24,000 bases of DNA, from NCBI GenBank assembly GCA_016293865.1, contig JAEDDG010000024.1, positions 1,048 through 25,047 on the forward strand. Reading direction: 5' to 3'. The stretch comes from Oscillospiraceae bacterium (GTDB taxonomy: Bacteria; Bacillota; Clostridia; Oscillospirales; Oscillospiraceae). The notes under the pieces were generated by a model. The model searched no databases and had not been told where the DNA came from. It was given only the letters and a program-made list of their open reading frames with translations. This document shows, piece by piece, positions 1 to 21,239 of the stretch. Both the position numbers and the translations under genes were made by a program. Within the stretch, counting starts at the first letter, position 1. Each line of letters opens with the position of its first letter.

Positions 1-60
1 CTGGGATTTTTTTAAGCGGTGAACGGCCGTCCAATCTCAAAGAAAACGGAGGAAAACAAG

Positions 61-1476
61 ATGAGAAAGATTAACATTGCAGACATTACGCTCAGCGAAT
101 CCGCTGCCGGCAAGGATCTGACTCTCAGCTTCAAGGAAAAGCTGGAGATTGCCAAGCATCTTGATAAAATGCGGGTGGACGTGCTGGAACTGCCGCAGCT
201 GGAGAATTTGAAGACAGATGCGCTTCTGGTGCGGACCATTGCCACCACTGTGCAGAACTGCGCCGTATCCATTCAGGTGGGTATGACTGAAGCAGGCGCT
301 GACAACGCCTGGGCCGCCGTGATGAAGGCGCGCCGGCCGCGGCTGCGTGTGGCCCTGCCGGTGAGCACGGTGCAGATGGAATATCTGTGCCACAAAAAGC
401 CCGCGGCCATGCTGGAACTGATTTCCGTTATGGTGAAAAAATGCGTCTCCCTGTGCGCGGATGTGGATTTTACCGCGGAGGACGCAACACGCGCCGAGCC
501 GGAATTCCTGAAAGCGGCGATTGAAGCGGCGGTGAAGGCCGGCGCGACAACAGTGACTGTCAGTGACACGGCGGGCATTATGATGCCGGAGGAATTTGCA
601 CAGTTCATTTCCGATCTGCGCGCTACAGTTCCTGAGCTGGAAAATGTATCACTGGCGGTCAAGTGCGCCAATGAGCTGAAAATGTCCGTGGCTTGCGCCA
701 TGACTGCCGTCAAAGCCGGCGCCTGCGAGATCAAGGCATGCGCTTCCGGGGATACGCTGCCGACGCTCTCGGCTCTGAGCCGGATTTTCCGCCTGCGGGG
801 CGATTCTGTGGGCGTCTGCTGCAATCTGAATTCCATGGAGATCCAGCGCCTGACCAAGCAGATTGAGTGGATTACCCGGGCGAAAAAGTCGGCCACCACG
901 CCGTTTGACACCGGCATCAGCGCCGGCAGCGGCGCGGAGTTTTCGCTCAGCAGCAATGACAGCCTGGACGAGGTGGCCAAGGCTGTGGCGCAGCTGGGCT
1001 ATGACCTGACCGAGGATGATATTGCCAAGGTTTATGAGTCTTTTTCCCACATTGCGTCCAAGAAAGCGGTTTCCTCAAAGGAGCTTGAGGCAATTGTGGC
1101 CAGCGTTGCGCTGCAGGTTCCGCCCACGTACCGGCTGAAGAGCTTTGTCATCAACAGCGGCAACCTGATTTCCGCCACAGCCAATATTTCCCTTGACAAG
1201 GGCGACCGGATGATGCAGGGCGTCAGCGTCGGCGACGGTCCTATTGACGCGGCGTTCCTTGCCATTGAAAAAATTATCGGAACCCATTATGACCTGGACG
1301 ATTTCCAGATCCAGGCCGTTACCGAGGGGCGCGAGGCCGTGGGCTCCGCTGTTGTCAAGCTGCGGTCGTCAACCGGAAAGCTTTATTCCGGCCGCGGAAT
1401 TTCCACGGATATCATCGGCGCGTCCATCCGCGCGTACATCAACGCCCTGAACAAGATCGTTTATGAGGAGAACTGA
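61..1476 (+). CDS. LeuA/HMGL-like TIM-barrel protein with a LeuA-type C-terminal regulatory domain; catalytic motifs degenerate (probable pseudoenzyme or regulatory subunit)
   Basis: ORF 19..1476. GGAGGA at 45-50 favours ATG 61 (MRKINIADITL...). The N-terminus is collinear with 2-isopropylmalate synthase, but the expected TLRDGEQ reads TLSESAA and the HxH metal-site region reads AVKCANELK. The C-terminal GDGPIDAAFLAIEKI...GRGISTDIIGASIRAYINALNKI resembles the LeuA dimerisation/allosteric domain. Confidence 0.75.
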   Translation: MRKINIADITLSESAAGKDLTLSFKEKLEIAKHLDKMRVDVLELPQLENLKTDALLVRTIATTVQNCAVSIQVGMTEAGADNAWAAVMKARRPRLRVALPVSTVQMEYLCHKKPAAMLELISVMVKKCVSLCADVDFTAEDATRAEPEFLKAAIEAAVKAGATTVTVSDTAGIMMPEEFAQFISDLRATVPELENVSLAVKCANELKMSVACAMTAVKAGACEIKACASGDTLPTLSALSRIFRLRGDSVGVCCNLNSMEIQRLTKQIEWITRAKKSATTPFDTGISAGSGAEFSLSSNDSLDEVAKAVAQLGYDLTEDDIAKVYESFSHIASKKAVSSKELEAIVASVALQVPPTYRLKSFVINSGNLISATANISLDKGDRMMQGVSVGDGPIDAAFLAIEKIIGTHYDLDDFQIQAVTEGREAVGSAVVKLRSSTGKLYSGRGISTDIIGASIRAYINALNKIVYEEN

Positions 1477-1478
1477 CC

Positions 1479-3995
1479 ATGAAACTTTCATTTTCCATTA
1501 AAGGCTGGAACGGATACAGCTGGGATGAGTTCTGCGCCCTGGCAAAGGATATGGATATTCAGGGCATTGAGCTTTACAATATTCACAATACTGCGTTTAC
1601 AGAGAAGGGCGGCCCCTTTGACGAGCATACGGCGGCGGCCACTCTGCGGGAAATGCATGCGCACAATCTGCAGATCCCGTGCATCGATTCTGTCTGCGAC
1701 ATCGCCGACGCTGCGCAGTATGAACACAACTGCACGGAAATTGACGCCTGTATCAAAACGGCGGCGAGCTTTAAAGTTCCCTATGTCCGCGTACACGCCA
1801 CCGGCGGCGACGATGTGACGGAAACCGTGATGAACTGCCTGCGCAGGGCTGTTGCAGCCGCGGAAGCGGCGGGTGTCACTGTGCTGATTGAAACGGTGGG
1901 GCTCTTTGCCGACACCGGCCGGCTGAGAAATGTCCTGAATGATTTTGCCTGCGACAATCTCGGCGCGCTGTGGGATATGCAGCATCCCTACCGCATCTGC
2001 GGCGAAAAGCCGGACACGACAATCCAGAATCTGGGTGCCTATGTCCGCCATGTGCATGTGAAGGACTCTGAAGTTGTGGACGGCCAGGTGGAATACCGCC
2101 TGATGGGCGAGGGCACGCTGCCTATGCAGGATATGATGAACGCCCTGCGCAGCGTGAACTACAACGGCTTCATTTCCCTGGAATGGGATCCCGCCTGGAT
2201 GCCTGAAATCGACGATATTGAGGTTATCCTGCCGCATTTCGTGAATTACATGAACCGGTTCAGCGATCCCTCCCGGTCGCGCTCCGTTCTGTATGACAAC
2301 CATACGCATACAGGCAAATATGTCTGGAAAAAGGAACTGATCATCGAGAAGACATTCTCTCAGGTACTGGACAGAATGGTGGAGGAATTCCCGGATCAGT
2401 ACGCCTTCAAATATACGACGCTGGATTACACCCGGACCTATGCCGAGTTCAGGGACGATGTGGACGAGTTTGCCCGCACGCTGATCGCGCTGGGCGTCAA
2501 GCCCGGCGACAAGGTGTCCATCTGGGCGACCAACATTCCCCAGTGGTATATCACCTTCTGGGCGACAACGAAGATCGGCGCGATCCTGGTGACTGTCAAT
2601 ACGGCGTACAAGGTGCATGAGGCCGAATATCTGTTCCGTCAGTCCGACACCCATACAATCGTGATGATTGACGGCTACAGGGATTCCAACTACTCTGAAA
2701 TCATCGCGGAGCTGTGCCCGGAGCTGGAGAATACCGTGCCCGGCCAGCCGTTGCATGCAAAGCGCCTGCCGTTCCTGCGCAACGTGATCACCGTCGGGTT
2801 CAGACAGAAGGGCTGCCTGACCTGGGAGGAATCCCTGCTGCTGGCAAACCGCGTGCCCCAGGAAGAGGTGGATCGCAGGGCGGCTGCGGTGGACATTCAC
2901 GACGTGTGCAACATGCAGTATACGTCGGGTACCACGGGCTTCCCCAAGGGTGTTATGCTGACCCATTACAACGTCGTCAACAACGGCAAGGCCATCGGCG
3001 ACTGCATGGATCTGTCCACGGCAGACCGGATGATGATCCAGGTGCCCATGTTCCACTGCTTCGGCATGGTGCTGGCCATGACGGCATCCATGACGCACGG
3101 GGCGACGCTGCATCCGATTCCGTATTTCTCACCGAAATCTTCGCTGGCCTGCATCAACAACGAGCATGTGACGGCCTTCCACGGCGTGCCGACCATGTTT
3201 ATTGCCATGCTCGAGCATGAAGATTTTGAAAAGACTGATTTTTCCTACATGCGTACGGGTATTATGGCCGGTTCCCCCTGTCCCATCAAGGTGATGGAGG
3301 ACGTTGTGGAAAAGATGCACATGCCGGAAATCTGCATTACGTACGGGCAGACGGAGGCATCGCCCGCCACGACCATGAGCAAGACCACAGACTCCATCGA
3401 AACCCGTGTCAATACCGTGGGCAGCCCCATCTTCGGCGTCGAGTGCAAAATTATCAATCCGGAGACAGGCGAGGAAGTGCCGGACAACGTGGACGGCGAG
3501 TTCTGCGCCCGGGGCTACAACATCATGAAGGGATATTACAAGATGCCCATCGCCACGGCGGAAGCCATTGACAAGGACGGCTGGCTCCACTCCGGAGATC
3601 TGCTGCGCCGCCTGCCGGACGGCACGTTCAAGGTTACCGGCCGCCTGAAGGATATGATTATCCGCGGCGGCGAGAACATCTACCCCAAGGAGATCGAGGA
3701 CTTCCTCTACACCCATCCCAAGGTTTCGGACGTTCAGGTCATCGGCGTGCCGGATGAGCAGTACGGCGAGGAAATCATGGCCTGCGTGATTGTGAAGGAA
3801 GGGGAAACGCTGACCGAAAGCGAGCTGCGGGAATATTGCCGCACGCGCATTGCCAAGCATAAGGTCCCGCGCTACTTCGATTTTGTGGATTCCTTCCCCA
3901 TGAATGCGGCCGGAAAGATCCTCAAATACAAAATGCGCGAACAGGCGGTGGACAAGCTGGGCCTGAAGAAGGCGGCGTCGGTTGTGACGGCCTGA
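1479..3995 (+). CDS. Fusion protein: N-terminal xylose-isomerase-like (sugar phosphate isomerase/epimerase, AP-endonuclease-2 type) TIM barrel plus C-terminal AMP-forming acyl-CoA ligase (FadD/ACSF2-like)
   Basis: One 838-aa ORF. Its ATG lies 2 nt after the stop of the upstream gene. Residues about 1-270 carry TIM-barrel metal-ligand-like positions (LIETVG, WDMQHP, HVHVKD, SLEWD). Residues about 300-838 carry adenylate-forming motifs YTSGTTGFPKGVMLTH, YGQTE, GWLHSGD and GRLKDMIIRGGENIYPKEIE. Confidence 0.85.
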   Translation: MKLSFSIKGWNGYSWDEFCALAKDMDIQGIELYNIHNTAFTEKGGPFDEHTAAATLREMHAHNLQIPCIDSVCDIADAAQYEHNCTEIDACIKTAASFKVPYVRVHATGGDDVTETVMNCLRRAVAAAEAAGVTVLIETVGLFADTGRLRNVLNDFACDNLGALWDMQHPYRICGEKPDTTIQNLGAYVRHVHVKDSEVVDGQVEYRLMGEGTLPMQDMMNALRSVNYNGFISLEWDPAWMPEIDDIEVILPHFVNYMNRFSDPSRSRSVLYDNHTHTGKYVWKKELIIEKTFSQVLDRMVEEFPDQYAFKYTTLDYTRTYAEFRDDVDEFARTLIALGVKPGDKVSIWATNIPQWYITFWATTKIGAILVTVNTAYKVHEAEYLFRQSDTHTIVMIDGYRDSNYSEIIAELCPELENTVPGQPLHAKRLPFLRNVITVGFRQKGCLTWEESLLLANRVPQEEVDRRAAAVDIHDVCNMQYTSGTTGFPKGVMLTHYNVVNNGKAIGDCMDLSTADRMMIQVPMFHCFGMVLAMTASMTHGATLHPIPYFSPKSSLACINNEHVTAFHGVPTMFIAMLEHEDFEKTDFSYMRTGIMAGSPCPIKVMEDVVEKMHMPEICITYGQTEASPATTMSKTTDSIETRVNTVGSPIFGVECKIINPETGEEVPDNVDGEFCARGYNIMKGYYKMPIATAEAIDKDGWLHSGDLLRRLPDGTFKVTGRLKDMIIRGGENIYPKEIEDFLYTHPKVSDVQVIGVPDEQYGEEIMACVIVKEGETLTESELREYCRTRIAKHKVPRYFDFVDSFPMNAAGKILKYKMREQAVDKLGLKKAASVVTA

Positions 3996-4096: not shown

Positions 4097-4119
4097 GACA
4101 TCAATTGAATCATTGTTAA

Positions 4120-4404
4120 AGGCTGTGACGAAGACGGAAGAGCGATTTCACATCCAGAGAGCCGGGGACGGTGTGAGCCCGGCGGTGCAGATCCTCATAT
4201 TCCCATCCCTTCCGAGCTGTTGGCCCCAAAGTCCGTTCCGGATGAGTAGACGCCTTCCGTGATTGCTGCGTGAATGCATAGGGCTTGACTGAGCCTGAGA
4301 GCGGTGCCGGATAACCGGCGCAATTTGAGTGGTACCGCGGGTTTATCTTGTTTGTAAACTCGTCTCAAGGATTTCCGTATCTTTGAGACGAGTTTTTTGT
4401 TTTT
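4120..4404 (+). promoter_or_regulatory. T-box riboswitch leader 1 (tRNA-sensing transcription attenuator)
   Basis: K-turn GGC-UGU-GA (4121-4128) opposite GA-GCU (4214-4218). AGAGA bulge at 4156-4160. Distal hairpin gccggg/cccggc with loop GACGGUGUGAG (4161-4183). GAGUAG and CCGUGA (F-box-like) at about 4242-4262. T-box sequence AAUUUGAGUGGUACCGCGG at 4322-4340. UUGAG (4325-4329) can pair with CUCAA (4364-4368) in the 5' arm of the terminator, giving an antiterminator alternative. Confidence 0.85.
4357..4404 (+). terminator. Intrinsic terminator of T-box leader 1
   Basis: actcgtctcaa (4358-4368) pairs with ttgagacgagt (4383-4393), followed by TTTTTGTTTTT. It sits immediately before RBS AAGGAGG (4405-4411). 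Confidence 0.85.
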
Positions 4405-4417
4405 AAGGAGGTAAAAG

Positions 4418-6685
4418 ATGATGAGCAGCTACGTTGACAACAGCATCCTTGAGGTGGCGCACCGCATTCGTGAAATGCGCGAGATCGCGGGCTTTTCCGT
4501 GGAAGAGATGGCCGCCCAGACCAATGTGACGGCTGATATGTACCGGACGCTGGAGGCAGGCGGGACGGACCTTCCGTTCACATTTATCCACAAGTGCGCG
4601 CTGGCCTTCGGCATTGAGATTACCGACCTGATTGAAGGCAAAAGCGCCAAGCTTACCAGCTATACAGTGACCCGCAAAGGTGAGGGACGTGTGACAGCCC
4701 AGGAGGACGGGATTGAAATCCTTGACCTTGCGCCGCAGTTCCGCAAAAAAATTGCAGAGCCGTACTGGGTCCGCTATGAGTATTCTGAAGAGCTGCAGAC
4801 AAAGCCCATTCATCTGACCACACACTCCGGCCAGGAGTTTGACTATATCATCAAGGGCCGCCTGAAGGTTCAGGTCGGCAATCACATCGAAGTTCTCAAT
4901 GAGGGCGATTCGATTTACTACAACAGCTCCACGCCGCACGGCATGATTGCCGTCAACGGTGAGCCCTGCGTATTCTGCGCGGTTGTTCTGCCGGGCGAGG
5001 ATGCGGCGGAGAGCGAGCACAAAAACAGCATCATCCATCCCCGGACGGCGGAGCCCATGATCTGCGACAAGTTTGTGCGCTGCACAGAGGATGAGGAAGG
5101 CCATCTGCAGAAGATCGAGTTTACGAATGAGGATCAGTTCAACTTCGGCTTCGACGTGGTGGATGCGCTGGCGGATAAGTATCCCGATAAGCTTGCCATG
5201 CTGCACATTGCAGAGGATATGACCGAGCGCCGCTTCAGCTTTGCGGACATGAAGCGCGCCAGCGCCCAGACGGCCAACTATTTCACTTCACTGGGCATCA
5301 AAAAGGGCGACCGGGTCATGCTGGTGCTCAAGCGGCACTATCAGTTCTGGTTCTCCATGCTGGCGCTGCATAAGATGGGCGCCATCCCGATCCCGGCCAC
5401 AAACCAGCTTCTGGAGCACGATTTTGAGTACCGTTTCGATGCGGCCGGCATCTCGGCAATCGTCTGCACGGCTGACGGAGACGCTGCGCACCAGGCGGAG
5501 CTGGCCATGGAAAAATGCCCGCAGGTGACTGTCCGCGTGCTCGTAGGCGGGAAGCGGGAAGGCTGGCACGATTTTGACAGCGAGTACAAGCTTTTCTCCG
5601 GCTCTTATCCGCGTACGGAAGAGACGCCCTGCGGCGACGACATCATGTTCATGCTCTTTACTTCCGGCACCACAGGGTACCCGAAAATTGCGGAGCACAG
5701 CTACAAGTATCCGCTCGGCCACTATGTGACCGCCAAGTACTGGCACTGTGTGGAGCGGGGCGGCCTGCACCTGACCATTTCCGATACCGGCTGGGGCAAG
5801 GCGCTGTGGGGCAAGCTTTACGGCCAGTGGCTGGCAGAAGGCGCCGTATTCGTCTATGACTTTGACCGGTTCGATGCCCATAAGATTCTGCCCATGTTTG
5901 CAAAATACAACATTACAACCTTCTGTGCGCCGCCCACCATGCTGCGCATGATGGTCAAGGAGGATCTGTCACAGTACGATCTGAGCTCCGTCACCCATAT
6001 GACGACGGCAGGCGAGGCGCTGAATCCCGAGGTCTTCCGCCAGTTCGAGGCGGCCACCGGCCTGCAGATCATGGAAGGTTTCGGCCAGACGGAGACGACG
6101 CTCCTGATCGGCAACCTGATCGGCGATACACCCAAGCTGGGATCCATGGGCAAGCCCTCGCCCCAGTATGACGTGGTGATTGTGGACGCACAGGGCAAGG
6201 AAGTCCCGGTCGGTGAAAACGGCGAAATCTGCGTGCGTACAGACAAGGGCGTGCCCTGCGGCCTGTTCAAGGGCTATTACAACGCGCCGGATAAAACGGC
6301 CGAGGTCTGGCACGACGGCCTGTACCACACCGGCGACGTGGCCTGGAAGGATGAGGACGGCTATCTGTGGTACGTCAGCCGCATCGACGACGTGATCAAA
6401 TCCTCCGGCTACCGCATCGGGCCGTTTGAGATTGAGAGCGTGATCATGGAGCTTCCGTATGTTCTGGAGTGCGGCGTTTCTGCGGCTCCGGATCCGGTGC
6501 GCGGCCAGGTGGTCAAGGCGTCCATCGTTCTGACTAAGGGAACCGAGGGGACCGAGGAGCTGAAAAAAGAGATCCAGGATTATGTGAAAAAGCATACCGC
6601 ACCGTACAAATATCCGCGTATTGTGGTCTTCCGTGACAGTCTGCCCAAGTCCATCAGCGGCAAGATCCAGCGCAACAAGCTGTAA
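4418..6685 (+). CDS. XRE-family HTH + cupin + medium-chain acyl-CoA synthetase (MACS/ACSM-like, AMP-forming) fusion, paralog 1
   Basis: 755-aa ORF with AAGGAGG 6 nt upstream. HTH at about aa 10-70 (FSVEEMAAQTNVTADMYRTLEAG). Cupin at about aa 130-190 (HSGQEFDYIIKG...STPHGMIAV). Ligase motifs FTSGTTGYPK, GFGQTET, YHTGDVA, RIDDVIKSSGYRIGPFEIES, SGKIQRNKL. Confidence 0.9.
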   Translation: MMSSYVDNSILEVAHRIREMREIAGFSVEEMAAQTNVTADMYRTLEAGGTDLPFTFIHKCALAFGIEITDLIEGKSAKLTSYTVTRKGEGRVTAQEDGIEILDLAPQFRKKIAEPYWVRYEYSEELQTKPIHLTTHSGQEFDYIIKGRLKVQVGNHIEVLNEGDSIYYNSSTPHGMIAVNGEPCVFCAVVLPGEDAAESEHKNSIIHPRTAEPMICDKFVRCTEDEEGHLQKIEFTNEDQFNFGFDVVDALADKYPDKLAMLHIAEDMTERRFSFADMKRASAQTANYFTSLGIKKGDRVMLVLKRHYQFWFSMLALHKMGAIPIPATNQLLEHDFEYRFDAAGISAIVCTADGDAAHQAELAMEKCPQVTVRVLVGGKREGWHDFDSEYKLFSGSYPRTEETPCGDDIMFMLFTSGTTGYPKIAEHSYKYPLGHYVTAKYWHCVERGGLHLTISDTGWGKALWGKLYGQWLAEGAVFVYDFDRFDAHKILPMFAKYNITTFCAPPTMLRMMVKEDLSQYDLSSVTHMTTAGEALNPEVFRQFEAATGLQIMEGFGQTETTLLIGNLIGDTPKLGSMGKPSPQYDVVIVDAQGKEVPVGENGEICVRTDKGVPCGLFKGYYNAPDKTAEVWHDGLYHTGDVAWKDEDGYLWYVSRIDDVIKSSGYRIGPFEIESVIMELPYVLECGVSAAPDPVRGQVVKASIVLTKGTEGTEELKKEIQDYVKKHTAPYKYPRIVVFRDSLPKSISGKIQRNKL

Positions 6686-6787: not shown

Positions 6788-6803
6788 TTACTCAATTCAG
6801 AAA

Positions 6804-7089
6804 AGCTTTGACGGAGAGTGCCCTGGCAGGCCGTGTTTCAGAGAATTGGCGTCTGGTGCGAGCCAATAATACGCAGCCAGCGGTTTGTAGCTCCCGAGCT
6901 GGAAGGAAGAAAGCGCGTGCGTGAGTAGAACCTTCCCGTGACTGCTGCGTAAAGGCATAGGGCTTGACAGAGTCTGAGAGTGGCGCTGGTTTCCGGCGCA
7001 ATTTGAGTGGTACCGCGGGTCTTTATATGAACGTATAAAACTCGTCTCAAAGATTACAACATCTTTGGGGCGGGTTTTTGTTTTACCGC
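6804..7089 (+). promoter_or_regulatory. T-box riboswitch leader 2 (tRNA-sensing transcription attenuator)
   Basis: K-turn AGC-UUU-GA (6804-6811) opposite GA-GCU (6896-6900). AGAGA at 6840-6844. Distal hairpin attggc/gccaat with loop GUCUGGUGCGA. GAGUAG and CCGUGA elements at about 6922-6941. A 28-nt block ccggcgcaatttgagtggtaccgcgggt (6993-7020) is identical to 4315-4342. Terminator ctcgtctcaaagat / atctttggggcggg (7041-7074, several G-U pairs) followed by TTTTTGTTTT. Confidence 0.85.
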
Positions 7090-7110
7090 CCCGGAAAACG
7101 GAGGAAAATT

Positions 7111-9378
7111 ATGGTTGCTGTGAACACAAAAATTCAGGAAATTGCCGGCCGTATCCGCGAGCTGCGGGAGGTTATGGGTCATACGGTGGGCGATATGGCA
7201 GCTCTGACCGGGATCTCCGAGGAAGAGTATGCGGCCTGTGAAAGCGGCCAGCGTGATCTGAGCTTTGCATTTCTGTACCTTTGCGCCCAGGCGTTCCGCG
7301 TGGACGTGACGGACATCATTCAGGGCCAGAGCCCCAAACTGAAAAGCTATTCCATCACCCGCGCGGGCGAGGGACAGCTGATCAACCGCGCCCATGATAT
7401 GGAATATTTCAACCTGGCCGGCTCTTTCCGCAAGAGAATTGCGGATCCTCTGTATGTCAACATCACCTATGTGGAAGGCGCCGAGCGCCGTCCCATTGAA
7501 GTGACCACCCATGAGGGCCAGGAGTGCGACATTGTGCTCAAGGGCACAATGAAGCTGCAGGTCGGCGAGCATGTGGAAATCCTGCACGAGGGCGACTGCG
7601 CCTATTATGACAGCTCCACGCCGCACGGCATGATTGCAGTCGGCGGCAAGGACTGCGTTTTTTACGCAATTGTTCTGACGCCGAACAAGGACGAGGAGAG
7701 CAAAAGCGCCGACGTGGAAACAAGATCCACGGAGAAGGACAACACCATTCGCGTCTGGAACGAGTTTGTGGAGCCTGTTGAGGATGAGAAGGGCTGCTTG
7801 AAAAGCATTTCCTTCAAGAACACGGACCGCTTCAATTTTGCCTTTGACGTGGTCGACAGGCTGGGACAGGAAAAACCGGACAAGACGGCCATCCTGCATG
7901 TGAGCAGGGATCATACGGCACGACGCATTACCTTCGGCGAGATGAAGCGCGCCAGCGCCCAGACGGCCAACTATTTCAAGTCCCTGGGCATCAAAAAAGG
8001 CGACCGGGTCATGCTGATTCTCAAGCGTCATTATCAGTACTGGTTCTGCGTCAACGCCCTGCACAAAATCGGCGCCATTGCGATTCCGGCCATGTGCCAG
8101 CTGCTGGACCATGACATTGAATACCGGTTCAATGCCGCCGGCGTGTCCACCATTATCTGCACGGCGGACGGCGATACCGCGCATCAGGTGGAACTGGCGT
8201 GTGCCCGCTGCCCGCAGGTTGTCAATAAGATCCTTGTGGGCGGAAAGCGGGAAGGCTGGCGTGATTATGACGAGGAATACCAGCTGTTTTCCGGCCGGTT
8301 CCCCCGCACGGCGGATACGCCCTGCGGCGACGACCTGATGCTTATGTACTTCACTTCCGGCACGACCGGCTACCCGAAAATGGCGGCGCACAGCTACAAG
8401 TATCCGCTGGGCCATTTTGTAACGGCGAAATACTGGCAGTGCGTGAATCCCGAAGGACTGCATCTGACCATTTCCGATACCGGCTGGGCCAAGGCCGGCT
8501 GGGGCAAGATTTACGGCCAGTGGCTGTGCGAAGGCGGTCTGTTTGTCTATGACTTCGACCGGTTCGACGCCCATGATATCCTGCCCATGTTTGCCCAGTA
8601 TCACATTACAACCTTCTGCGCGCCGCCCACCATGCTGCGCCTGATGGTCAAAGAGGATATCAGCAAGTACGATCTGAGCTCGATCGAGCACATGACGACG
8701 GCCGGCGAGGCGCTGAATCCGGAGGTCTTCCGCCAGTTCAAGGCGGCAACGGGCCTGAACATTATGGAGGGCTTCGGCCAGACGGAGACGACGGTGATCG
8801 TCGGCAATCTGGAGGGCACGAAGGTCCGTATCGGGTCCATGGGCAAGGCGAATCCCCAGTATGATGTGGACATCGTCGATCCCCAGGGGAACAGCGTGCC
8901 CGTGGGCGAAAACGGCGAGATCGTGATCCGCACAGACAAGGGCGCGCCCTGCGGCCTGCTGAAGGAATACTACAAGGCGCCGGACAAAACGCTGGAGACC
9001 TGGCATGACGGCATGTATCACACAGGCGACGTGGCCTGGCGCGATGAGGACGGTTATTTCTGGTATGTGGGCCGGATTGACGATGTGATCAAATCTTCCG
9101 GCTACCGTATCGGCCCGTTCGAAATCGAGAGCGTGATCATGGAGCTGCCGTACGTTCTGGAGTGCGGCGTGTCCGCGGCGCCGGATCCGGTCCGCGGCCA
9201 GGTGGTCAAGGCGTCCATCGTCCTTACAAAGGGAACCGAGGGAACCGAAGAGCTGAAAAAAGAGATTCAGGCTTATGTCAAGGAGCATACGGCTCCGTAT
9301 AAATATCCGCGCATTGTTGTGTTCCTGGACTCCCTGCCCAAGACCACCAGCGGCAAGATCCAGCGCAACAAGCTGTAA
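7111..9378 (+). CDS. XRE-family HTH + cupin + medium-chain acyl-CoA synthetase fusion, paralog 2
   Basis: The ORF track starts at 7078, but that start lies inside the T-box terminator U-tract. ATG 7111 is preceded by GGAGGA and gives 755 aa (MVAVNTKIQEIAGRIRELRE...), the same length and architecture as paralog 1. The last 101 aa differ from paralog 1 at 5 positions. Confidence 0.9.
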   Translation: MVAVNTKIQEIAGRIRELREVMGHTVGDMAALTGISEEEYAACESGQRDLSFAFLYLCAQAFRVDVTDIIQGQSPKLKSYSITRAGEGQLINRAHDMEYFNLAGSFRKRIADPLYVNITYVEGAERRPIEVTTHEGQECDIVLKGTMKLQVGEHVEILHEGDCAYYDSSTPHGMIAVGGKDCVFYAIVLTPNKDEESKSADVETRSTEKDNTIRVWNEFVEPVEDEKGCLKSISFKNTDRFNFAFDVVDRLGQEKPDKTAILHVSRDHTARRITFGEMKRASAQTANYFKSLGIKKGDRVMLILKRHYQYWFCVNALHKIGAIAIPAMCQLLDHDIEYRFNAAGVSTIICTADGDTAHQVELACARCPQVVNKILVGGKREGWRDYDEEYQLFSGRFPRTADTPCGDDLMLMYFTSGTTGYPKMAAHSYKYPLGHFVTAKYWQCVNPEGLHLTISDTGWAKAGWGKIYGQWLCEGGLFVYDFDRFDAHDILPMFAQYHITTFCAPPTMLRLMVKEDISKYDLSSIEHMTTAGEALNPEVFRQFKAATGLNIMEGFGQTETTVIVGNLEGTKVRIGSMGKANPQYDVDIVDPQGNSVPVGENGEIVIRTDKGAPCGLLKEYYKAPDKTLETWHDGMYHTGDVAWRDEDGYFWYVGRIDDVIKSSGYRIGPFEIESVIMELPYVLECGVSAAPDPVRGQVVKASIVLTKGTEGTEELKKEIQAYVKEHTAPYKYPRIVVFLDSLPKTTSGKIQRNKL

Positions 9379-9387
9379 GGAGAACTT

Positions 9388-10071
9388 ATGCTTACAAAAC
9401 GCATTTCCCTGTTTGCCGGCCATTACGGCAGCGGAAAGACGAATATCGCCGTGAACTGCGCGCTGTGCGCCAGGGAAGCGGGGCAGAACGTGACCATTGC
9501 CGACCTGGATATTGTCAACCCGTATTTCCGGACAAAGGACAGCGAGGCGCTTTTGAAGCGTCATGGGATCGGCCTTGTCTGCTCCGAATATGCCAATACA
9601 AATCTGGATATCCCGGCACTGCCCAAGGAACTGTATGCCATATTGGCACGCAGGGATTCAGCGGTTATAATGGATATCGGCGGCGATGACCGCGGCGCCG
9701 TGGCGCTGGGCCGCTATACGCCGATGATTCTGGAAGAAAACGATTACGACATGTTTTTTGTGGCCAATTTTTACCGGCCGCTGACCCGTACGCCGGAAGA
9801 AATGATCCAGATCATGCGTGAGATTGAAACGGCTTCCGGCCTGCCGTTTACGGCAATCATCAACAACTCGAACCTTGCCGGCGACACACAGGCAGACACA
9901 GTGACAGACACTGTGGGGAAGGCGCGGGAACTGTCCCGGATAACGGGGCTGCCCATACGCGCCACCTGTGTGGAGCAGAGGCTTTTCGAAAGCCTGAAGG
10001 ATCAGATACCGGATCTTGTTCCGCTGCATCTTCAGGAAAAATATTTTGACATTGTAAATGGAGGGATCTAA
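9388..10071 (+). CDS. P-loop NTPase (SIMIBI/MinD-ParA-CooC-like), function unknown
   Basis: Walker A AGHYGSGKTN near the N-terminus and a Walker-B-like VIMDIGGDD. RBS AAGGAGA overlaps the stop of the upstream ligase gene. Its stop lies 1 nt before the ferredoxin-subunit start. Confidence 0.75.
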   Translation: MLTKRISLFAGHYGSGKTNIAVNCALCAREAGQNVTIADLDIVNPYFRTKDSEALLKRHGIGLVCSEYANTNLDIPALPKELYAILARRDSAVIMDIGGDDRGAVALGRYTPMILEENDYDMFFVANFYRPLTRTPEEMIQIMREIETASGLPFTAIINNSNLAGDTQADTVTDTVGKARELSRITGLPIRATCVEQRLFESLKDQIPDLVPLHLQEKYFDIVNGGI

Positions 10072-10072
10072 A

Positions 10073-10279
10073 ATGGCGAAGCTGACATTTAAAACCGACC
10101 TGTGCAAGGGATGCGGACTGTGCGTCAACGCATGTCCGAAGGGCGTGCTTGAAATTGCGCGCGACAAAATCAACCTCAAGGGGTATTCTCCCGTGGTTGC
10201 CAGGGATATGGATAAATGCATCGGTTGTGCATTCTGCGCAACCATGTGTCCCGACTGCATTATTACAGTAGAAAAGTGA
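10073..10279 (+). CDS. 2-oxoacid:ferredoxin oxidoreductase delta subunit (2x[4Fe-4S] ferredoxin)
   Basis: Two CxxCxxCxxxCP motifs (CKGCGLCVNACP, CIGCAFCATMCP). ATG 10073 (MAKLTFK...) is preceded by GGAGGG. The ORF-track start 10058 overlaps the previous gene. Confidence 0.85.
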   Translation: MAKLTFKTDLCKGCGLCVNACPKGVLEIARDKINLKGYSPVVARDMDKCIGCAFCATMCPDCIITVEK

Positions 10280-10289
10280 GGTGCCGATT

Positions 10290-11351
10290 ATGGCAGAAAA
10301 AGTATTGATGAAGGGCAATGAAGCCATTGCCGAGGCAGCCATCCGCGCCGGCTGCCGTCACTATTTCGGATATCCCATCACGCCGCAGACAGAAATCGCG
10401 GCATATATGGCCAAGAAAATGCCGAAAATCGGCGGAACATTTCTCCAGGCGGAAAGTGAAATTGCCGCCATTAATATGGTCTACGGCGTATCCTCTGCCG
10501 GCTTCCGGGTCATGACCTCGTCATCCAGCCCCGGTGTCAGCCTGAAGAGCGAGGGCCTGTCCTATCTGGCGGGCTGCGACCTGCCGGCGCTTGTGGTCAA
10601 TGTCCAGCGCGGCGGCCCCGGCCTCGGCGGCATTCAGCCCTCCCAGTCCGATTATTTTATGGCCACCAAGGGCGGCGGACACGGCGATTTCCGCATGATC
10701 GTTCTGGCGCCTGCTTCTGTTCAGGAAATGGCCGGCCTGACCTTCAAGGCTTTTGAACTGGCCGATCAGTACAGAATGACCGCCATGCTGCTGGCTGACG
10801 GAACTCTGGGTCAGATGATGGAGGCCATCACGTTCCCGGAGACTGAGGTCAGGACATTTGACAAGCCCTGGGCCGTCACCGGCACGCAGATGAAGCGCCC
10901 CCACAACATCATCAATTCTCTGGCGCTCGTACCGGATGTGCTGGAAAAGATGAATTTTGACCGGTATAAGAAATACGCGGAAATCGAGGAAAAGGAGCCC
11001 ATGTACGAATCGTACATGATGGATGACGCGGAAATCTGTGTCGTCGCCTTCGGTATTGCCTCCCGCGTGTCCAAGAATGCAATTATGGCCGCAAGGGCTG
11101 AGGGCATCAAGGTGGGCATGATCCGGCCCATCACGCTCTGGCCGTTCCCCACAAAGGCGCTGGCAGAAGCGGCGCAGAAGTGCAGGGCGTTTGTCTCTGT
11201 TGAACTCAACATGGGCCAGATGATTGAAGATGTCCGGCTGGCTACCGGCTGCGCGCGGCCTGTTTCCCTGTGCAACAGAGCCGGCGGTATGATCCCCACG
11301 CCGGATCATGTCCTTGCATCCATTCGGGAAGCCAACAAGGGAGGTAACTGA
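10290..11351 (+). CDS. 2-oxoacid:ferredoxin oxidoreductase alpha subunit (KorA/VorB-type)
   Basis: MAEKVLMKGNEAIAEAAIRAGCRHYFGYPITPQTEI is the typical OFOR alpha N-terminus. GAGGTG sits 6 nt upstream of ATG 10290. Confidence 0.9.
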   Translation: MAEKVLMKGNEAIAEAAIRAGCRHYFGYPITPQTEIAAYMAKKMPKIGGTFLQAESEIAAINMVYGVSSAGFRVMTSSSSPGVSLKSEGLSYLAGCDLPALVVNVQRGGPGLGGIQPSQSDYFMATKGGGHGDFRMIVLAPASVQEMAGLTFKAFELADQYRMTAMLLADGTLGQMMEAITFPETEVRTFDKPWAVTGTQMKRPHNIINSLALVPDVLEKMNFDRYKKYAEIEEKEPMYESYMMDDAEICVVAFGIASRVSKNAIMAARAEGIKVGMIRPITLWPFPTKALAEAAQKCRAFVSVELNMGQMIEDVRLATGCARPVSLCNRAGGMIPTPDHVLASIREANKGGN

Positions 11352-11353
11352 TT

Positions 11354-12112
11354 ATGGTCGTTTTTGAGAAACCTCATGCCCTCACCGATGCACCGCTGCA
11401 TTACTGCCCCGGCTGCACGCACGGCATTGTTCACCGCCTTGTGGCGGAAGCCATCGACGCCCTCGGAATTGAGGGGAAGACCATCGGCGTGGCGCCGGTC
11501 GGCTGCTCCGTCATGGCCTATAATTATTTTTCATGCGATATGATTGAAGCGGCGCACGGCCGCGCACCGGCTGTGGCAACCGGCGTAAAGCGGGCGCTGC
11601 CGGACAACATTGTCTTTACATATCAGGGCGACGGCGATCTGGCGTCCATCGGCACGGCGGAGACCGTTCACGCTGCAGCGAGAAACGAGAACATTACGAT
11701 TATCTTCATCAACAACGCCATTTACGGCATGACCGGCGGCCAGATGGCGCCCACGTCGCTGCCCGGCCAGGTGACGCAGACTTCGCCGTACGGCCGCGAT
11801 CCGCAGCTGTGCGGTTTCCCGGTTAAAATCTGCGAAATGCTTTCTCAGCTGGAAGGTCCGGAGTATATTGAGCGCGTGGCGGTCAACAACGTCAAGAACA
11901 TCAAAAAAGCCGGCAAAGCCATTCTGAAAGCTTTTAAGAACCAGACGGAGAACAAGGGCTTCTCGCTGATTGAAGTTGTCTCCACCTGTCCCACCAACTG
12001 GGGTATGACGCCGCAGGACGCGATGAAGTGGGTGGATGAAAAAATGATTCCCTATTACCCGCTGGGCGTTTACAAAGACAGAAGCGCGGAAAAAGCAGAG
12101 GAGGGGAAATAA
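11354..12112 (+). CDS. 2-oxoacid:ferredoxin oxidoreductase beta subunit (TPP-binding)
   Basis: CPGCTHG cysteine motif and TPP motif YQGDGDLASIG...NNAIYGMTGGQ. Tightly packed against the alpha and gamma genes. Confidence 0.9.
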   Translation: MVVFEKPHALTDAPLHYCPGCTHGIVHRLVAEAIDALGIEGKTIGVAPVGCSVMAYNYFSCDMIEAAHGRAPAVATGVKRALPDNIVFTYQGDGDLASIGTAETVHAAARNENITIIFINNAIYGMTGGQMAPTSLPGQVTQTSPYGRDPQLCGFPVKICEMLSQLEGPEYIERVAVNNVKNIKKAGKAILKAFKNQTENKGFSLIEVVSTCPTNWGMTPQDAMKWVDEKMIPYYPLGVYKDRSAEKAEEGK

Positions 12113-12645
12113 TGGCCACTTCACAGATTCTGATTGCGGGTTTCGGCGGACAGGGCGTCCTTTTCGCCGGGAAGTTTTTGGCCTACAAGGCCCTGACTGA
12201 GAATAAGCAGCTGAGCTGGCTGCCGTCCTACGGCCCGGAAATGCGCGGCGGCACGGCCAACTGCAGCGTGATTATCAGCGACGATCCGGTTGGTTCTCCC
12301 ATCATTACCACGCCGGACTGCCTGATTGCCATGAACCGGCCGTCTCTTGACAAATATGTGGACGCAGTGGCGCCCGGCGGCATGATCCTTGTGGATTCGT
12401 CCCTGATCAGCGTCGAGGTCGAACGCACGGATGTCCGCACCTTCTATATTCCGGCAACCAAAATGGCAAATGACGCGGGCTTCGCGACGCTTGCGAACAT
12501 GGTTCTTGTGGGCAAACTGATCAAGGAATCCGGCGTTGTTTCTTTTGAAAATAACAAAGAGACTTTTGAAAAGTTCATTCCGGCAAAGAAAGCAAATCTG
12601 ATTGAGATCAACTGCCAGGCCCTGCAGACCGGGTATGATTATTAA
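12112..12645 (+). CDS. 2-oxoacid:ferredoxin oxidoreductase gamma subunit
   Basis: N-terminal [16 protein letters not shown] and [19 protein letters not shown] are typical of OFOR gamma subunits. TAATG overlap with the beta subunit gene. Confidence 0.9.
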
Positions 12646-12663: not shown

Positions 12664-13737
12664 ATGCTTGACATTAAGATCACCAAAACCACACAGCCCA
12701 AGCAAAAGCCCGCGCCGGGTCAGAAACTCGGCTTCGGCCATATTTTCACCGACCATATGTTCATCATGAACTATACGGAAGGAAAAGGCTGGCATGATCC
12801 GCGGATCGTTCCGTTCCAGAATCTGAGCCTGTCTCCCGCGGCGATGGTTTTTCACTACGGTCAGGAAATGTTCGAAGGCCTGAAGGCCTATAAGAATTCC
12901 GACGGCGAAGTTTTCCTTTTCCGCCCGGATATGAACGCCAAGCGCACCAATTCTTCCAATGAGCGTCTGTGTATCCCGCAGCTGCCGGAAGAGGATTTTG
13001 TCCAGGCTGTCAGAACGGTTGTGGATGTGGACCGCGACTGGGTCCCGACGGATCCCGGCACGTCCCTGTATATCCGTCCGTTCATCATCGCAACGGATGA
13101 GTTCCTGGGTGTTGCGCCGTCCAAGACGTATCTGTTCATGGTCATTCTGTCACCCAGCGGCGCTTATTATGAAAGCGGACTGGAGCCTGTGGGCATCTGG
13201 ATTGAGGATGAGTATGTCCGTGCGGTCCGCGGCGGCATGGGCTTTGCCAAAACCGGCGGCAACTATGCGGCCAGCCTGATCGGCCAGGTGAAGGCGCACA
13301 ACGACGGTTATTCCCAGGTTCTGTGGCTGGACGGTGTGGAGCGCAAGTACGTTGAGGAAGTCGGCTCCATGAATATTTTCTTCAAAATTGCCGGCAAAGT
13401 GGTTACGCCCATGCTCAACGGCAGCATCCTGCCGGGCATTACCCGCAACTCTGTCATTACCCTGTGCAAAGAGTGGGGCTATGAGGTTGAGGAACGGAAG
13501 GTTTCTGCTGAAGAGCTGATTCAGGCGCATGCAGACGGCACGCTGGAAGAGGTTTTCGGCACCGGTACTGCAGCCGTCATTTCTCCTGTCGGCAAGCTGC
13601 GCTATAAGGACGATGTGATGACGATCCAGGACGGCAGGACCGGCGAACTGAGCCACCGTCTCTATGATACCATTACCGGCATTCAGCTGGGCAAGCTGCC
13701 GGACACGCACGGCTGGCGTGTAAAAGTCGGCGAATAA
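12664..13737 (+). CDS. ilvE: Branched-chain amino acid aminotransferase (class IV, long form)
   Basis: 357 aa. Motifs FGHIFTDHMF, YGQEMFEGLKAY, RAVRGGMGFAKTGGNYAASL and ILPGITR match long-form IlvE (YbgE/YwaA type). RBS AAGGAAAGGA upstream. Confidence 0.9.
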   Translation: MLDIKITKTTQPKQKPAPGQKLGFGHIFTDHMFIMNYTEGKGWHDPRIVPFQNLSLSPAAMVFHYGQEMFEGLKAYKNSDGEVFLFRPDMNAKRTNSSNERLCIPQLPEEDFVQAVRTVVDVDRDWVPTDPGTSLYIRPFIIATDEFLGVAPSKTYLFMVILSPSGAYYESGLEPVGIWIEDEYVRAVRGGMGFAKTGGNYAASLIGQVKAHNDGYSQVLWLDGVERKYVEEVGSMNIFFKIAGKVVTPMLNGSILPGITRNSVITLCKEWGYEVEERKVSAEELIQAHADGTLEEVFGTGTAAVISPVGKLRYKDDVMTIQDGRTGELSHRLYDTITGIQLGKLPDTHGWRVKVGE

Positions 13738-13829: not shown

Positions 13830-14765
13830 GTGCACCCTTTGGTTTATAATAATGTGCTGGAGGCGGTCGGACAGACGCCCGTCATTCGGCTGATGCGCAT
13901 GAGCAATCCCAATCATGCCCAGGTTCTTGTCAAATATGAAGGGCTGAACGTGGGCGGTTCGATCAAAACGCGGACTGCGCTGAATATGATCAACGCGGCC
14001 GAGCGTGCCGGGATTATCCGTCCGGATACGATTATTGTGGAGCCGACCAGCGGAAACCAGGGCATCGGTCTGGCACTGGTCGGTGCTGTCCGCGGCTATA
14101 AAACTGTGATTATCATGCCCGATTCGGTCAGTGTGGAGCGGCGCAAACTGATTGAGCATTACGGCGCGCAGCTTGTGCTGATCCGGGACGAGGGCAACAT
14201 CGGCGACTGCATTGAAAAGTGTATTCAGACGGCAAATGACATGGCGAAAGCGGACAGCCGCGTTTATATTCCACAGCAGTTTTCCAATCCGAACAATCCA
14301 CTGGTGCATAAGCATTTCACGGCGCTGGAGATTCTCCAGCAGGTTGCAGGGCCCATTCACGGCTTCTGCTCCGGAATCGGTACGGGCGGCACAATTTCCG
14401 GCATCGGCGAGACGCTGAAAAGCGTTTATCCGGATATGACCATCTGGGCTGTTGAGCCGGAGAACGCGGCGATTCTGGCCGGAGGAACGGTCGGCTCCCA
14501 TCTTCAGATGGGAATCGGAGACGGCCTGATTCCGGAAAATCTGAACACGAAGATTTACGACGATATCTACATTGTCAGTGATGATGAGGCCATCGGAACA
14601 GCCAAGGATCTGGCGCGGTACGAGGGTCTGATGTGCGGCATTTCCAGCGGCACAAATGTGGCCGCGGCGCTGAAGCTTGCGGAGAAGCTGGGGAAGGGAA
14701 AAACAGTTGTGACCATTCTGCCGGACACGGCGGAGCGCTATTTTTCCACGCCGCTGTTTGACTGA
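13830..14765 (+). CDS. cysK: Cysteine synthase A / O-acetylserine sulfhydrylase (PLP-dependent)
   Basis: GQTPVIRL, GGSIKTR (PLP lysine), TSGNQGIGLA and GIGTGGTISG motifs. The start is uncertain: GTG 13830 overlaps the GAGAGG RBS, so TTG 13839 (spacing about 7 nt) is at least as likely. Confidence 0.85.
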   Translation: MHPLVYNNVLEAVGQTPVIRLMRMSNPNHAQVLVKYEGLNVGGSIKTRTALNMINAAERAGIIRPDTIIVEPTSGNQGIGLALVGAVRGYKTVIIMPDSVSVERRKLIEHYGAQLVLIRDEGNIGDCIEKCIQTANDMAKADSRVYIPQQFSNPNNPLVHKHFTALEILQQVAGPIHGFCSGIGTGGTISGIGETLKSVYPDMTIWAVEPENAAILAGGTVGSHLQMGIGDGLIPENLNTKIYDDIYIVSDDEAIGTAKDLARYEGLMCGISSGTNVAAALKLAEKLGKGKTVVTILPDTAERYFSTPLFD

Positions 14766-19398: not shown

Positions 19399-19399
19399 G

Positions 19400-21181: not shown

Positions 21182-21239
21182 AGTTCTGTCCTCCAATATA
21201 GATTTTCCTGCTCTCTTTGAGACAAAATTACATCAAAAT

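Follow-up and report, generated by a model that had tools for sequence, protein, structure and literature searches.

A helix-turn-helix-cupin module fused to tandem acyl-CoA ligases behind isoleucine and valine T-box leaders: a possible isozyme-specific sensor in branched-acid salvage

Introduction

A window of 24,000 nucleotides (contig JAEDDG010000024.1 of an Oscillospiraceae bacterium) carries on its forward strand two tandem genes, copy 1 (4418-6685) and copy 2 (7111-9378), each coding for a 755-residue protein in which a module made of a helix-turn-helix (HTH) and a cupin domain is fused to an acyl-CoA ligase of the MACS type. Each copy follows a T-box leader of its own, with an isoleucine and a valine specifier, respectively, and copy 2, which has the same architecture as copy 1, heads an operon running into the genes of a 2-oxoisovalerate:ferredoxin oxidoreductase (VOR) and of the aminotransferase IlvE. 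The residues that distinguish the two isozymes are concentrated in the HTH-cupin module, the catalytic part being nearly undifferentiated. In the following, the proposal is put forward, tentatively and at somewhat less than an even chance, that the module is an isozyme-specific allosteric sensor on the ligases of a route leading from branched acids to isoleucine and valine.

Architecture and distribution of the fusion

The products of copy 1 and copy 2 are 68% identical end to end in pairwise alignment. Copy 1 has a ribosome-binding site (AAGGAGG, 4405-4411) located after the terminator of its leader, and copy 2 is taken to start at ATG 7111, six bases after GGAGG (7100-7104), rather than at TTG 7078. 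At the N-terminus of copy 1, residues 13-75 match the Pfam families HTH_19 (25.8 bits), HTH_31 (25.0 bits) and HTH_3 (22.8 bits), all just under the gathering scores of 30.2, 27 and 23 bits, respectively; in copy 2 the HTH_3 (25.3 bits) and HTH_31 (27.2 bits) matches barely exceed theirs. The cupin, C-terminal to the HTH, is recognized by Cupin_2 with 45-47 bits in both copies against a cutoff of 27.2 (residues 135-189 and 45.3 bits in copy 1), and the ligase by AMP-binding (residues 252-621 and 228 bits in copy 1, 212 bits in copy 2) and AMP-binding_C (residues 671-749 and 72 bits in copy 1, 78 bits in copy 2), always over the gathering score. Copy 1 can be divided into an acidic, atypical XRE-like HTH of five helices (4439-4645, residues 8-76), which is near threshold in Pfam, a beta-rich connector followed by the cupin barrel that gives the Cupin_2 match (4646-4993, residues 77-192), a variable linker (4994-5062, residues 193-215; conservation 0.40 and predicted local distance difference test score, pLDDT, below 50) and the MACS-family ligase (5063-6682, residues 216-755), with every core motif of the ANL enzymes. 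A previous reading of this DNA, made from the sequence only, had described in both paralogs an HTH followed by a cupin with the string STPHGMIAV and joined to a complete MACS enzyme; both statements hold, the string being found in both copies, in agreement with the order of the Pfam domains, and the AMP-binding domains and core motifs being intact in both. The short acidic linker of the same reading corresponds to the segment of about 20 residues at positions 193-215, which is, however, variable and only partly acidic.

The fusion is neither a chance event nor an assembly artefact, because the 120 best matches in a collection of 5.8 billion proteins are all full length (754-806 residues, with Cupin_2 and both AMP-binding domains) and because relatives are found in at least 592 species-level genomes, as established by a scan of one genome per species with tblastn-confirmed relatives. 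Most of the best 120 matches score an HTH family too, many homologs being without a precomputed HTH match, and their source names are only 'cupin domain-containing protein' or 'acetyl-CoA synthetase'. Among the 80 loci that were inspected the match covers essentially the whole protein in every case, and all 80 belong to metagenome-assembled genomes of uncultured Clostridia (Acutalibacteraceae, Ruminococcaceae, Oscillospiraceae and Christensenellaceae), mostly from gut, rumen and digester. The fusion is, then, real, old and widespread. The survey of domain architecture across genomes that had been advocated on the basis of the sequence alone is given by this count of at least 592 genomes, and the claim that the fusion is conserved across two diverged copies is borne out by the two 755-residue genes and by their widespread relatives. 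No published description or experimental characterization of the fusion was found in the literature searched.

The module is also encoded separately. An exhaustive HMMER search returned 2953 relatives, many of which are standalone HTH-cupin proteins of 183-195 residues (33-46% identity); a search with the N-terminal part only gave mostly contig-end fragments of the fused protein, and the standalone relatives considered here are those of the exhaustive search. The genomic context of seven of them, which yields eight gene pairs from Methanomassiliicoccaceae archaea, Eggerthellaceae and Acutalibacteraceae, was checked: in all eight the HTH-cupin gene lies directly upstream of a gene for an AMP-binding ligase of 545-632 residues, with an overlap of 4-52 nt. 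The split ligases are 50-58% identical to the fused one, and the alignment begins exactly after the linker. The archaeal and Eggerthellaceae pairs are oriented divergently to clustered genes for the P-loop protein, ferredoxin and VOR; a second Eggerthellaceae pair has its 183-residue HTH-cupin gene in the middle of the operon, between VorG and another ligase. No Rfam match at E 0.01 is found anywhere in the split loci L081, L083 and L085. Archaea and Actinobacteria thus have the module as a distinct gene coupled in translation to that of the ligase, and Oscillospirales have the fusion. The window protein represents the fused version of a gene pair that is conserved in two domains of life, and the conservation of a module that is either split or fused argues for a stoichiometric, physical partnership between HTH-cupin and ligase.

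T-box leaders of the two copies

Leader 1 (4116-4370, forward strand) matches the T-box family of Rfam (RF00230) with 56.7 bits (E 7e-12, or 4e-10 over the whole window) and leader 2 (6799-7052, forward strand) with 87.2 bits (E 1e-19). The gathering score of RF00230 is 93 bits and both leaders score below it, which is why the T-boxes of the window are unannotated at that threshold (a gathering-threshold scan of the window is empty); an E-value threshold was used instead for their detection. Stem I with the AGAGA and GGUGNGA motifs, the specifier loop, the T-box sequence and the terminator/antiterminator are all present in both. Leader 1 has the specifier AUC at 4205-4207, just 5' of the lower stem CUUC (4209-4212), the T-box sequence AAUUUGAGUGGUACCGCGG at 4322-4340, which is also present in the second intergenic region, and an intrinsic terminator (4358-4404) with the stem ACUCGUCUCAAGGA / UCUUUGAGACGAGU followed by a U-run, as folded by RNAfold. 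In leader 2 the specifier GUA (6887-6889) is followed by G and then by the lower stem CUCC (6891-6894), the T-box sequence begins near 7000, and the intrinsic terminator, identified by sequence and RNAfold and likewise accompanied by a U-run, spans 7037-7084.

A T-box motif is found upstream of nearly every copy in the related loci, about 65 of the 80 having the tandem arrangement T-box-copy 1, T-box-copy 2. With the specifier defined as the three bases separated from the lower helix of Stem I by one purine or variable base, AUC is read in 66 of 78 leaders of copy-1 orthologs, the following base being A in 40, C in 22 and G in 4 (leader 1 of the window has C, not the usual purine); the leaders of copy-2 orthologs have GUA in 55 and GUC in 7 of 71 cases. 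The switch between GUA and GUC is synonymous, and valine identity is therefore a conserved feature. Copy 1 is thus predicted to be switched on by an isoleucine-specific T-box and copy 2 by a valine-specific one, a layer of control that is missing from the sequence-only reading, in which neither leader was noted. A single copy-2-type leader, in L076 (about 8480-8590), has CUG, a leucine codon, at the specifier position, which may reflect re-targeting of the T-box or a misreading by the specifier rule.

Residues that tell the two paralogs apart

The comparison of 77 copy-1 with 57 copy-2 orthologs, in which positions were regarded as discriminating when at least 85% conserved within each group and different between the groups, shows that 13 of 14 such positions fall within residues 10-189, i.e. 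in the N-terminal module (L10I, M20L, H58Y, K59R, L72I, A77P, E96A, I99M, I101Y, K111R, H132E, N169D and V189I), and that G460A is the only one in the ligase. In the module the identity between copy 1 and copy 2 is 0.46-0.58, as compared with 0.63-0.75 between orthologs, whereas in the ligase the two ranges nearly coincide (0.65-0.91 between copies and 0.69-0.91 between orthologs). Because the discriminating residues concentrate in the module and the ligase identities nearly coincide, the lasting functional difference between the isoleucine and valine isozymes resides in the T-box specifier and the HTH-cupin module rather than in the catalytic core. Gene conversion was considered as the origin of the undifferentiated ligase domains and rejected, since paralogs are as similar to each other within a genome as they are between genomes.

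Residues 132 and 169 flank invariant residues of the cupin (H136, Y168, S170 and H174) and probably line the interior of the barrel or its pocket. Residue 460 comes after the tryptophan of the TGW motif; 3ETC, the structure of the Methanosarcina acetivorans enzyme Macs, has Gly there as does copy 1, and Gly460 would fit a roomier acyl pocket for a C5 acid.

Fold and DNA-binding potential of the HTH-cupin module

The AlphaFold2 (AF2) model of the isolated module has a pLDDT of 90.7, which reaches 96-99 in the cupin part, and the helices of the copy 1 HTH span residues 10-24, 28-34, 39-46, 54-64 and 68-73 (pLDDT 90-98). Across bacteria and archaea H136 and H174 of the cupin are invariant and E140 is nearly so, and the motifs GQE and GDSxYYxSS..HGM are likewise conserved; a weak Cupin_3/EutQ-like match is found as well. 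With respect to solved structures, profile comparison relates the module both to the V. cholerae protein 1Y9Q (E 4.7e-10) and to HppE (E 2e-6, over both domains, residues 8-179), and Foldseek ranks HppE (E 2.0e-14) and 1Y9Q (E 2.3e-14) before Psf4, HEPD and MPnS. The Fe(II) ligands of HppE, a 2-His-1-Glu set, align with H136, E140 and H174. No NCBIfam regulator family matches the module above its cutoff. The sequence-only reading had named a match to a non-regulatory fold as the outcome that would speak against a regulator, and half of this is seen, HppE matching as well as the 'regulator' 1Y9Q.

The HTH is acidic: its net charge averages -5.8 among copy-1 and -6.0 among copy-2 orthologs. Helix 3 has the pattern S/T-x-[E/D]-[E/D]-Y-x-x-[Y/C]-E-x-G, so that positions 40-41, the two at which canonical XRE proteins contact bases, are E or D; positions 39, 43 and 44 vary within orthologs, and the exposed x positions differ even among orthologs of about 70% identity. 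At the N-terminus of helix 2 position 28 is variable and the canonical Gln is not conserved. The conserved polar or basic DNA-contact residues expected of PuuR-like XRE regulators are, overall, not found. The HTH residues that are invariant from archaea to Firmicutes (R16, R21, A32, Y42, E46, D51, F54, F56 and C60) make up a family-specific signature of the core and loops that looks unlike that of operator-tracking transcription factors.

An operator was sought in 124 promoter regions (70 + 54), in five archaeal intergenic regions and in the promoters of the window, distant targets being outside the scope of the search. No consistent inverted repeat was found in the intergenic regions of the split loci or in the promoters of the window, no recurrent inverted 5-mer in the 124 promoter regions was operator-like, and no operator site emerged from an enrichment test for CGTATACG-like motifs or from the alignment of the five archaeal intergenic regions. 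The only recurring elements were -35/-10 boxes or archaeal TATA-like elements, and the promoter and intergenic regions examined gave no operator candidate that would point to a regulatory target or a regulated promoter. Owing to the acidic HTH, the acidic or variable contact positions, the lack of an operator in these regions and the match with HppE, the evidence leans against DNA binding by the HTH.

A relative encoded outside the window, P0284 (758 residues, 44% identical over its full length), has lost key motifs of the ligase: FTSGTTGYPK of A3 is replaced by LQSYSYGMAK, YHTGD of A7 by FHTGT and GK of A10 by GV. It keeps the HTH-cupin module, including the H/E/H positions; helix 3 of its HTH is less acidic (SQEY) and helix 1 is rich in arginine. 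P0284 looks like a catalytically dead pseudo-ligase, the function of which must be non-catalytic, and is perhaps a pure regulator derived from the family.

The ligase and its gene neighbourhood

The ANL core motifs FTSGTTGYPK, GFGQTE, YHTGD, GRIDDVIKSSGYRIGPFEIE and SGKIQR (with the A10 lysine) occur in both copies and do not vary among 81 sequences. The closest solved relative of the ligase is M. acetivorans Macs (3ETC), which matches residues 230-753 with 618 bits (E 1.5e-184) and gives in Foldseek an E-value of 8e-58 and a TM-score of 0.81, normalized to the target. The best NCBIfam model is that of MbcS (NF047394), with 421 and 426 bits, below its equivalog cutoff of 850. The substrates of Macs include 2-methylbutyrate (PMC10455477), and MbcS of Staphylococcus aureus activates 2-methylbutyrate and isobutyrate (PMC10026030) in its role of supplying primers for branched-chain fatty acids (PMC10026030, PMC11167679). 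From the T-box specifiers, the presence of Gly or Ala at position 460 and homology, copy 1 would be a 2-methylbutyrate-CoA ligase for isoleucine synthesis and copy 2 an isobutyrate-CoA ligase for valine synthesis. The final 95 residues or so of the two copies (6400-6685 and 9093-9378) are nearly identical in this genome; the C-terminal ligase domain is the most conserved part of the protein family-wide (0.89-0.93), and strong constraint is a more likely cause of the near-identity than recent gene conversion.

A P-loop ATPase gene (9388-10071, forward strand), with a weak CbiA/ParA/NUBPL-like match, starts 10 nt after the stop codon of copy 2. The protein (225-260 residues) matches no NCBIfam family and its gene, whether in Clostridia, Eggerthellaceae or Methanomassiliicoccaceae (e.g. 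L081 2754-3533, L083 4101-4772 and L086 2224-2901), always immediately precedes that of the VOR ferredoxin subunit; the protein may be a factor for the maturation or activation of the iron-sulfur (Fe-S) centres of VOR. The VOR genes follow on the same strand (10058-12645), in the order delta, a ferredoxin of 73 residues with two [4Fe-4S] clusters (10058-10279), alpha (10281-11351; NCBIfam NF005507, VorB, 538 bits against a cutoff of 399), beta (11354-12112) and gamma (12112-12645), and are followed in turn by IlvE, a branched-chain amino acid aminotransferase (12664-13737, forward strand; Pfam Aminotran_4 and NCBIfam PRK13357, 504 bits against a cutoff of 307). The order copy 2, P-loop ATPase, VorD, VorA, VorB, VorG is seen in 60 of the 80 loci, i.e. 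in every locus extending far enough, with IlvE after VorG in some of the 60.

Upstream of copy 1, and also on the forward strand, a LeuA-like gene begins at position 19 (HMGL-like and LeuA_dimer domains; 300 bits against a cutoff of 532 for 2-isopropylmalate synthase) and is followed after 2 nt by a gene coding for an 838-residue fusion of a xylose-isomerase-like TIM barrel (AP_endonuc_2) with a PRK12583-like acyl-CoA ligase (1479-3995), the two genes together spanning 19-3995. The leader of this operon is cut by the start of the window. The operon has a T-box of its own in 10 of 11 related loci (L003, L031, L033, L046, L049, L051, L054, L064, L070 and L075), with the leucine codon CUC at the specifier position and a score, in L033, of 107.5 bits, over the gathering score of 93. 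The ligase fused to the TIM barrel could be the isovalerate-activating enzyme for leucine. Given the CUC leader of the related operons and the isoleucine and valine leaders of the window, the neighbourhood is best read as one of three acyl-CoA ligases placed behind leucine, isoleucine and valine T-boxes, beside VOR and IlvE.

Other genes adjoin this region. Downstream of IlvE are found a cysteine synthase (PALP; 13830-14765, forward strand) and a DUF711 (UPF0210) gene (15262-16620, forward strand). A Crp/Fnr-type regulator (17477-18133), a DUF436 gene (18248-18793) and the IorA/IorB genes of an indolepyruvate:ferredoxin oxidoreductase (IOR; 18826-21196) lie on the reverse strand; the latter could be the aromatic counterpart of the branched-chain route, leading from arylacetate to aromatic amino acids, and no ligase is adjacent to them in the window. 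In three Methanomassiliicoccaceae loci a 617-residue fusion of an acetyl-CoA hydrolase/transferase with a GNAT acetyltransferase is convergent to the ligase (L083 7214-9067, L086 5217-6573 and L087 5213-6573). In other systems the A10 lysine of acyl-CoA synthetases is a target of acetylation by GNATs and, by analogy, the archaeal fusion may be a second layer of control on the ligase.

Proposed mechanism and rival explanations

In the proposed route, exogenous branched acids would be activated at the expense of ATP and CoA to the corresponding acyl-CoA, 2-methylbutyrate by copy 1 and isobutyrate by copy 2; VOR would convert the acyl-CoA into the 2-oxoacid by reductive carboxylation with reduced ferredoxin and CO2, and IlvE would transaminate the 2-oxoacids to isoleucine and valine. 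AMP-forming activation fits the biosynthetic direction, and for rumen anaerobes the formation of isoleucine from 2-methylbutyrate by reductive carboxylation is accepted (PMC2812497). Transcription of each isozyme would require its own tRNA to be uncharged, by way of the isoleucine T-box for copy 1 and the valine T-box for copy 2. At the protein level, the HTH-cupin module would be an obligate partner of the ligase and a copy-specific sensor of a small molecule, with a cupin pocket that binds an end product or intermediate specific for the pathway (isoleucine versus valine, or the matching 2-oxoacid or acid) and with the acidic HTH-like domain acting as a structural or oligomerization cap, as in HppE. 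The outcome would be a feedback of the isozyme type, by which the ATP-consuming first step of each salvage branch could be shut off independently. Of the two functions offered by the sequence-only reading, the cupin as an allosteric sensor, there given as the alternative, is the one that best fits the concentration of paralog-specific residues in the module and the translational coupling to the ligase, allostery itself being deduced from these features; the effectors then suggested (branched-chain amino acids, BCAAs, 2-oxoacids and branched fatty acids) agree with the isoleucine and valine T-boxes, VOR and IlvE.

Several observations weigh against an isozyme-specific sensor. The conserved residues of the cupin are largely the same in both paralogs, and the bound species may therefore be common to the two (a metal or a nucleotide) instead of isoleucine or valine. 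The HTH is under purifying selection (conservation of 0.73-0.78 within orthologs) and its HTH_3, HTH_19 and HTH_31 scores persist. The divergent layout of HTH-cupin/ligase and VOR genes in the archaeal and Eggerthellaceae loci is a classic arrangement for a local regulator, and the retention of the module next to a dead ligase in P0284 implies a function of the module that is independent of catalysis. Furthermore, the substrates are assigned from T-box specifiers, one pocket-adjacent residue and homology, and any ligand, metal or interaction of the proposed sensor is putative. The AF2 model of the full-length protein (predicted template modelling score, pTM, 0.63; pLDDT below 50 in the linker and 33-48 in the C-terminal domain) places the module with too much uncertainty for the docking of the domains to be read.

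A rival explanation is a true trigger enzyme, in which a dimer of the HTH-cupin part binds DNA and the repression of VOR or transport genes is modulated by a ligand or by occupancy of the ligase. It is in keeping with this that HTH families score near or above threshold, that the HTH is conserved rather than decaying, that a catalytic and a DNA-binding-type domain are kept in one polypeptide in at least 592 genomes, that 1Y9Q, the nearest full-length sequence relative with a solved structure, carries the annotation of an HTH_3 regulator, and that split forms are transcribed divergently from the VOR operon; the less acidic helix 3 and the arginine-rich helix 1 of the module that dead-ligase P0284 retains point the same way. 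A precedent exists in FadD1 of Pseudomonas aeruginosa, an acyl-CoA ligase reported to act also as a transcription factor (PMC12754631). On the other hand, the HTH has a mean charge of about -6 and an acidic recognition helix, the exposed positions of which vary in orthologs, no palindrome recurs upstream of the 124 T-box promoters or in the five archaeal intergenic regions, T-boxes already set expression in this lineage, and repressors are not usually fused 1:1, or coupled in translation, to an abundant enzyme. A DNA-binding trigger enzyme, the first proposal of the sequence-only reading, is not upheld by the acidic HTH, the variable helix 3, the lack of an operator in the regions searched and the control of transcription by T-boxes, and is regarded as unlikely, if by no means far-fetched. 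The same doubtful standing is given to its elaboration, in which the module is a new regulatory device of adenylate-forming ligases, kept from Methanomassiliicoccales to gut Firmicutes, that makes the protein a BirA-like ligase-repressor, with DNA binding dependent on a ligand or on the acyl-adenylate, and P0284 is a pure regulator derived from it.

Quite improbable, by comparison, is a constitutive accessory role, either structural or catalytic, in oligomerization, in the capture of volatile acids or as a metal-dependent cupin enzyme acting before ligation. The 2-His-1-Glu set (H136, E140 and H174), kept in bacteria and archaea and aligned with the Fe(II) ligands of HppE, would be accounted for, as would the enzymes that are the best Foldseek matches and the weak Cupin_3/EutQ-like match. 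However, no chemical step is lacking between acid and acyl-CoA, the strictly anaerobic hosts exclude O2-dependent chemistry of the HppE type, and no such module is needed by the related MACS and MbcS enzymes, while a purely structural role would leave the concentration of paralog-specific residues unexplained. The explanation to which the lowest probability is assigned is that the ligases are catabolic or serve lipid synthesis, providing branched acyl-CoA primers for fatty acids, with the module sensing membrane or lipid status. Its basis is the best NCBIfam match, MbcS, which has this role in S. aureus (PMC10026030, PMC11167679); yet the equivalog cutoff of MbcS is missed (421-426 against 850 bits), the genes are co-operonic with VOR and IlvE, and the tRNA-Ile and tRNA-Val T-boxes tie expression to the charging with amino acids. 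The allosteric sensor is thus retained as the preferred, if tentative, reading.

Significance

The ligase, the T-box, VOR and IlvE are of already known kinds, and the architecture itself is visible in domain databases under generic names. What is new is that bacteria and archaea alike conserve the pair of HTH-cupin module and MACS ligase as a unit, whether split or fused, that this unit is wired to isoleucine and valine T-boxes and to VOR and IlvE, and that the divergence of the paralogs is concentrated in the HTH-cupin module. It is long established that anaerobes of the rumen and gut require or use isobutyrate, 2-methylbutyrate and isovalerate, and that they make valine, isoleucine and leucine from these acids by reductive carboxylation. 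In the literature searched no paper was found that names the acid-activating enzymes of these anaerobes or their control, and there was no description of T-box-controlled acyl-CoA ligases, of the genes of branched-acid reductive carboxylation or of an HTH-cupin module on an ANL ligase. The locus supplies concrete candidates for acid activation, namely three ligases behind leucine-, isoleucine- and valine-specific T-boxes, which makes the pathway directly testable. The fusion, taken with the occurrence of its split form in two domains of life, is a sign that ANL ligases have a new accessory module, and the copy-specific divergence of the module suggests isozyme-type feedback control. If the sensor reading is correct, a new regulatory principle would be added to a very large enzyme superfamily, with bearing on isoacid feeding in ruminants and on the exchange of branched-chain acids and BCAAs in the human gut. 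If, instead, the trigger-enzyme reading is correct, hundreds of gut and rumen species would have in this protein a BirA-like ligase-repressor for the salvage of branched acids.

Comparison with known systems

The module shares with E. coli PuuR and with 1Y9Q the order of its domains, HTH and cupin within about 185-190 residues; it differs from them in having an acidic HTH without conserved DNA-contact residues, in its constant fusion or translational coupling to a ligase, and in that no operator was found in the regions searched. 1Y9Q is not known to have been characterized functionally. HppE, Psf4, HEPD and MPnS, in which the XRE-like domain is structural and does not bind DNA, are a precedent for a domain of this kind, but the identity with HppE-type enzymes is just 18-20% and the locus has no phosphonate genes, its neighbours being VOR, IlvE, LeuA-like and IOR genes; the hosts, gut and rumen Clostridia and Methanomassiliicoccaceae, are anaerobes, in which O2-dependent chemistry of the HppE type is implausible. 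BirA combines an adenylate-forming ligase and a DNA-binding function in one polypeptide. It has no cupin, however, and FadD1 has no dedicated HTH. The sequence features of the window proteins argue against DNA binding.

On the side of catalysis, Macs resembles copy 1 in having Gly after the tryptophan of TGW, but it is without the HTH-cupin module, the match starting from its residue 45, and is not known to be controlled by a T-box or linked to VOR. Similarly, MbcS is without an N-terminal module and serves as a supplier of fatty-acid primers rather than in BCAA synthesis. The likeness to the aspartokinases, DAHP synthases and acetohydroxyacid synthases (AHAS) of Escherichia coli is one of logic only. 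These are end-product-specific isozymes of first committed steps, subject to amino-acid-specific attenuation, and, as proposed for copy 1 and copy 2, they have near-identical catalysis and differ in the regulatory part; their regulatory domains are ACT or other folds, unlike the HTH-cupin module found here.

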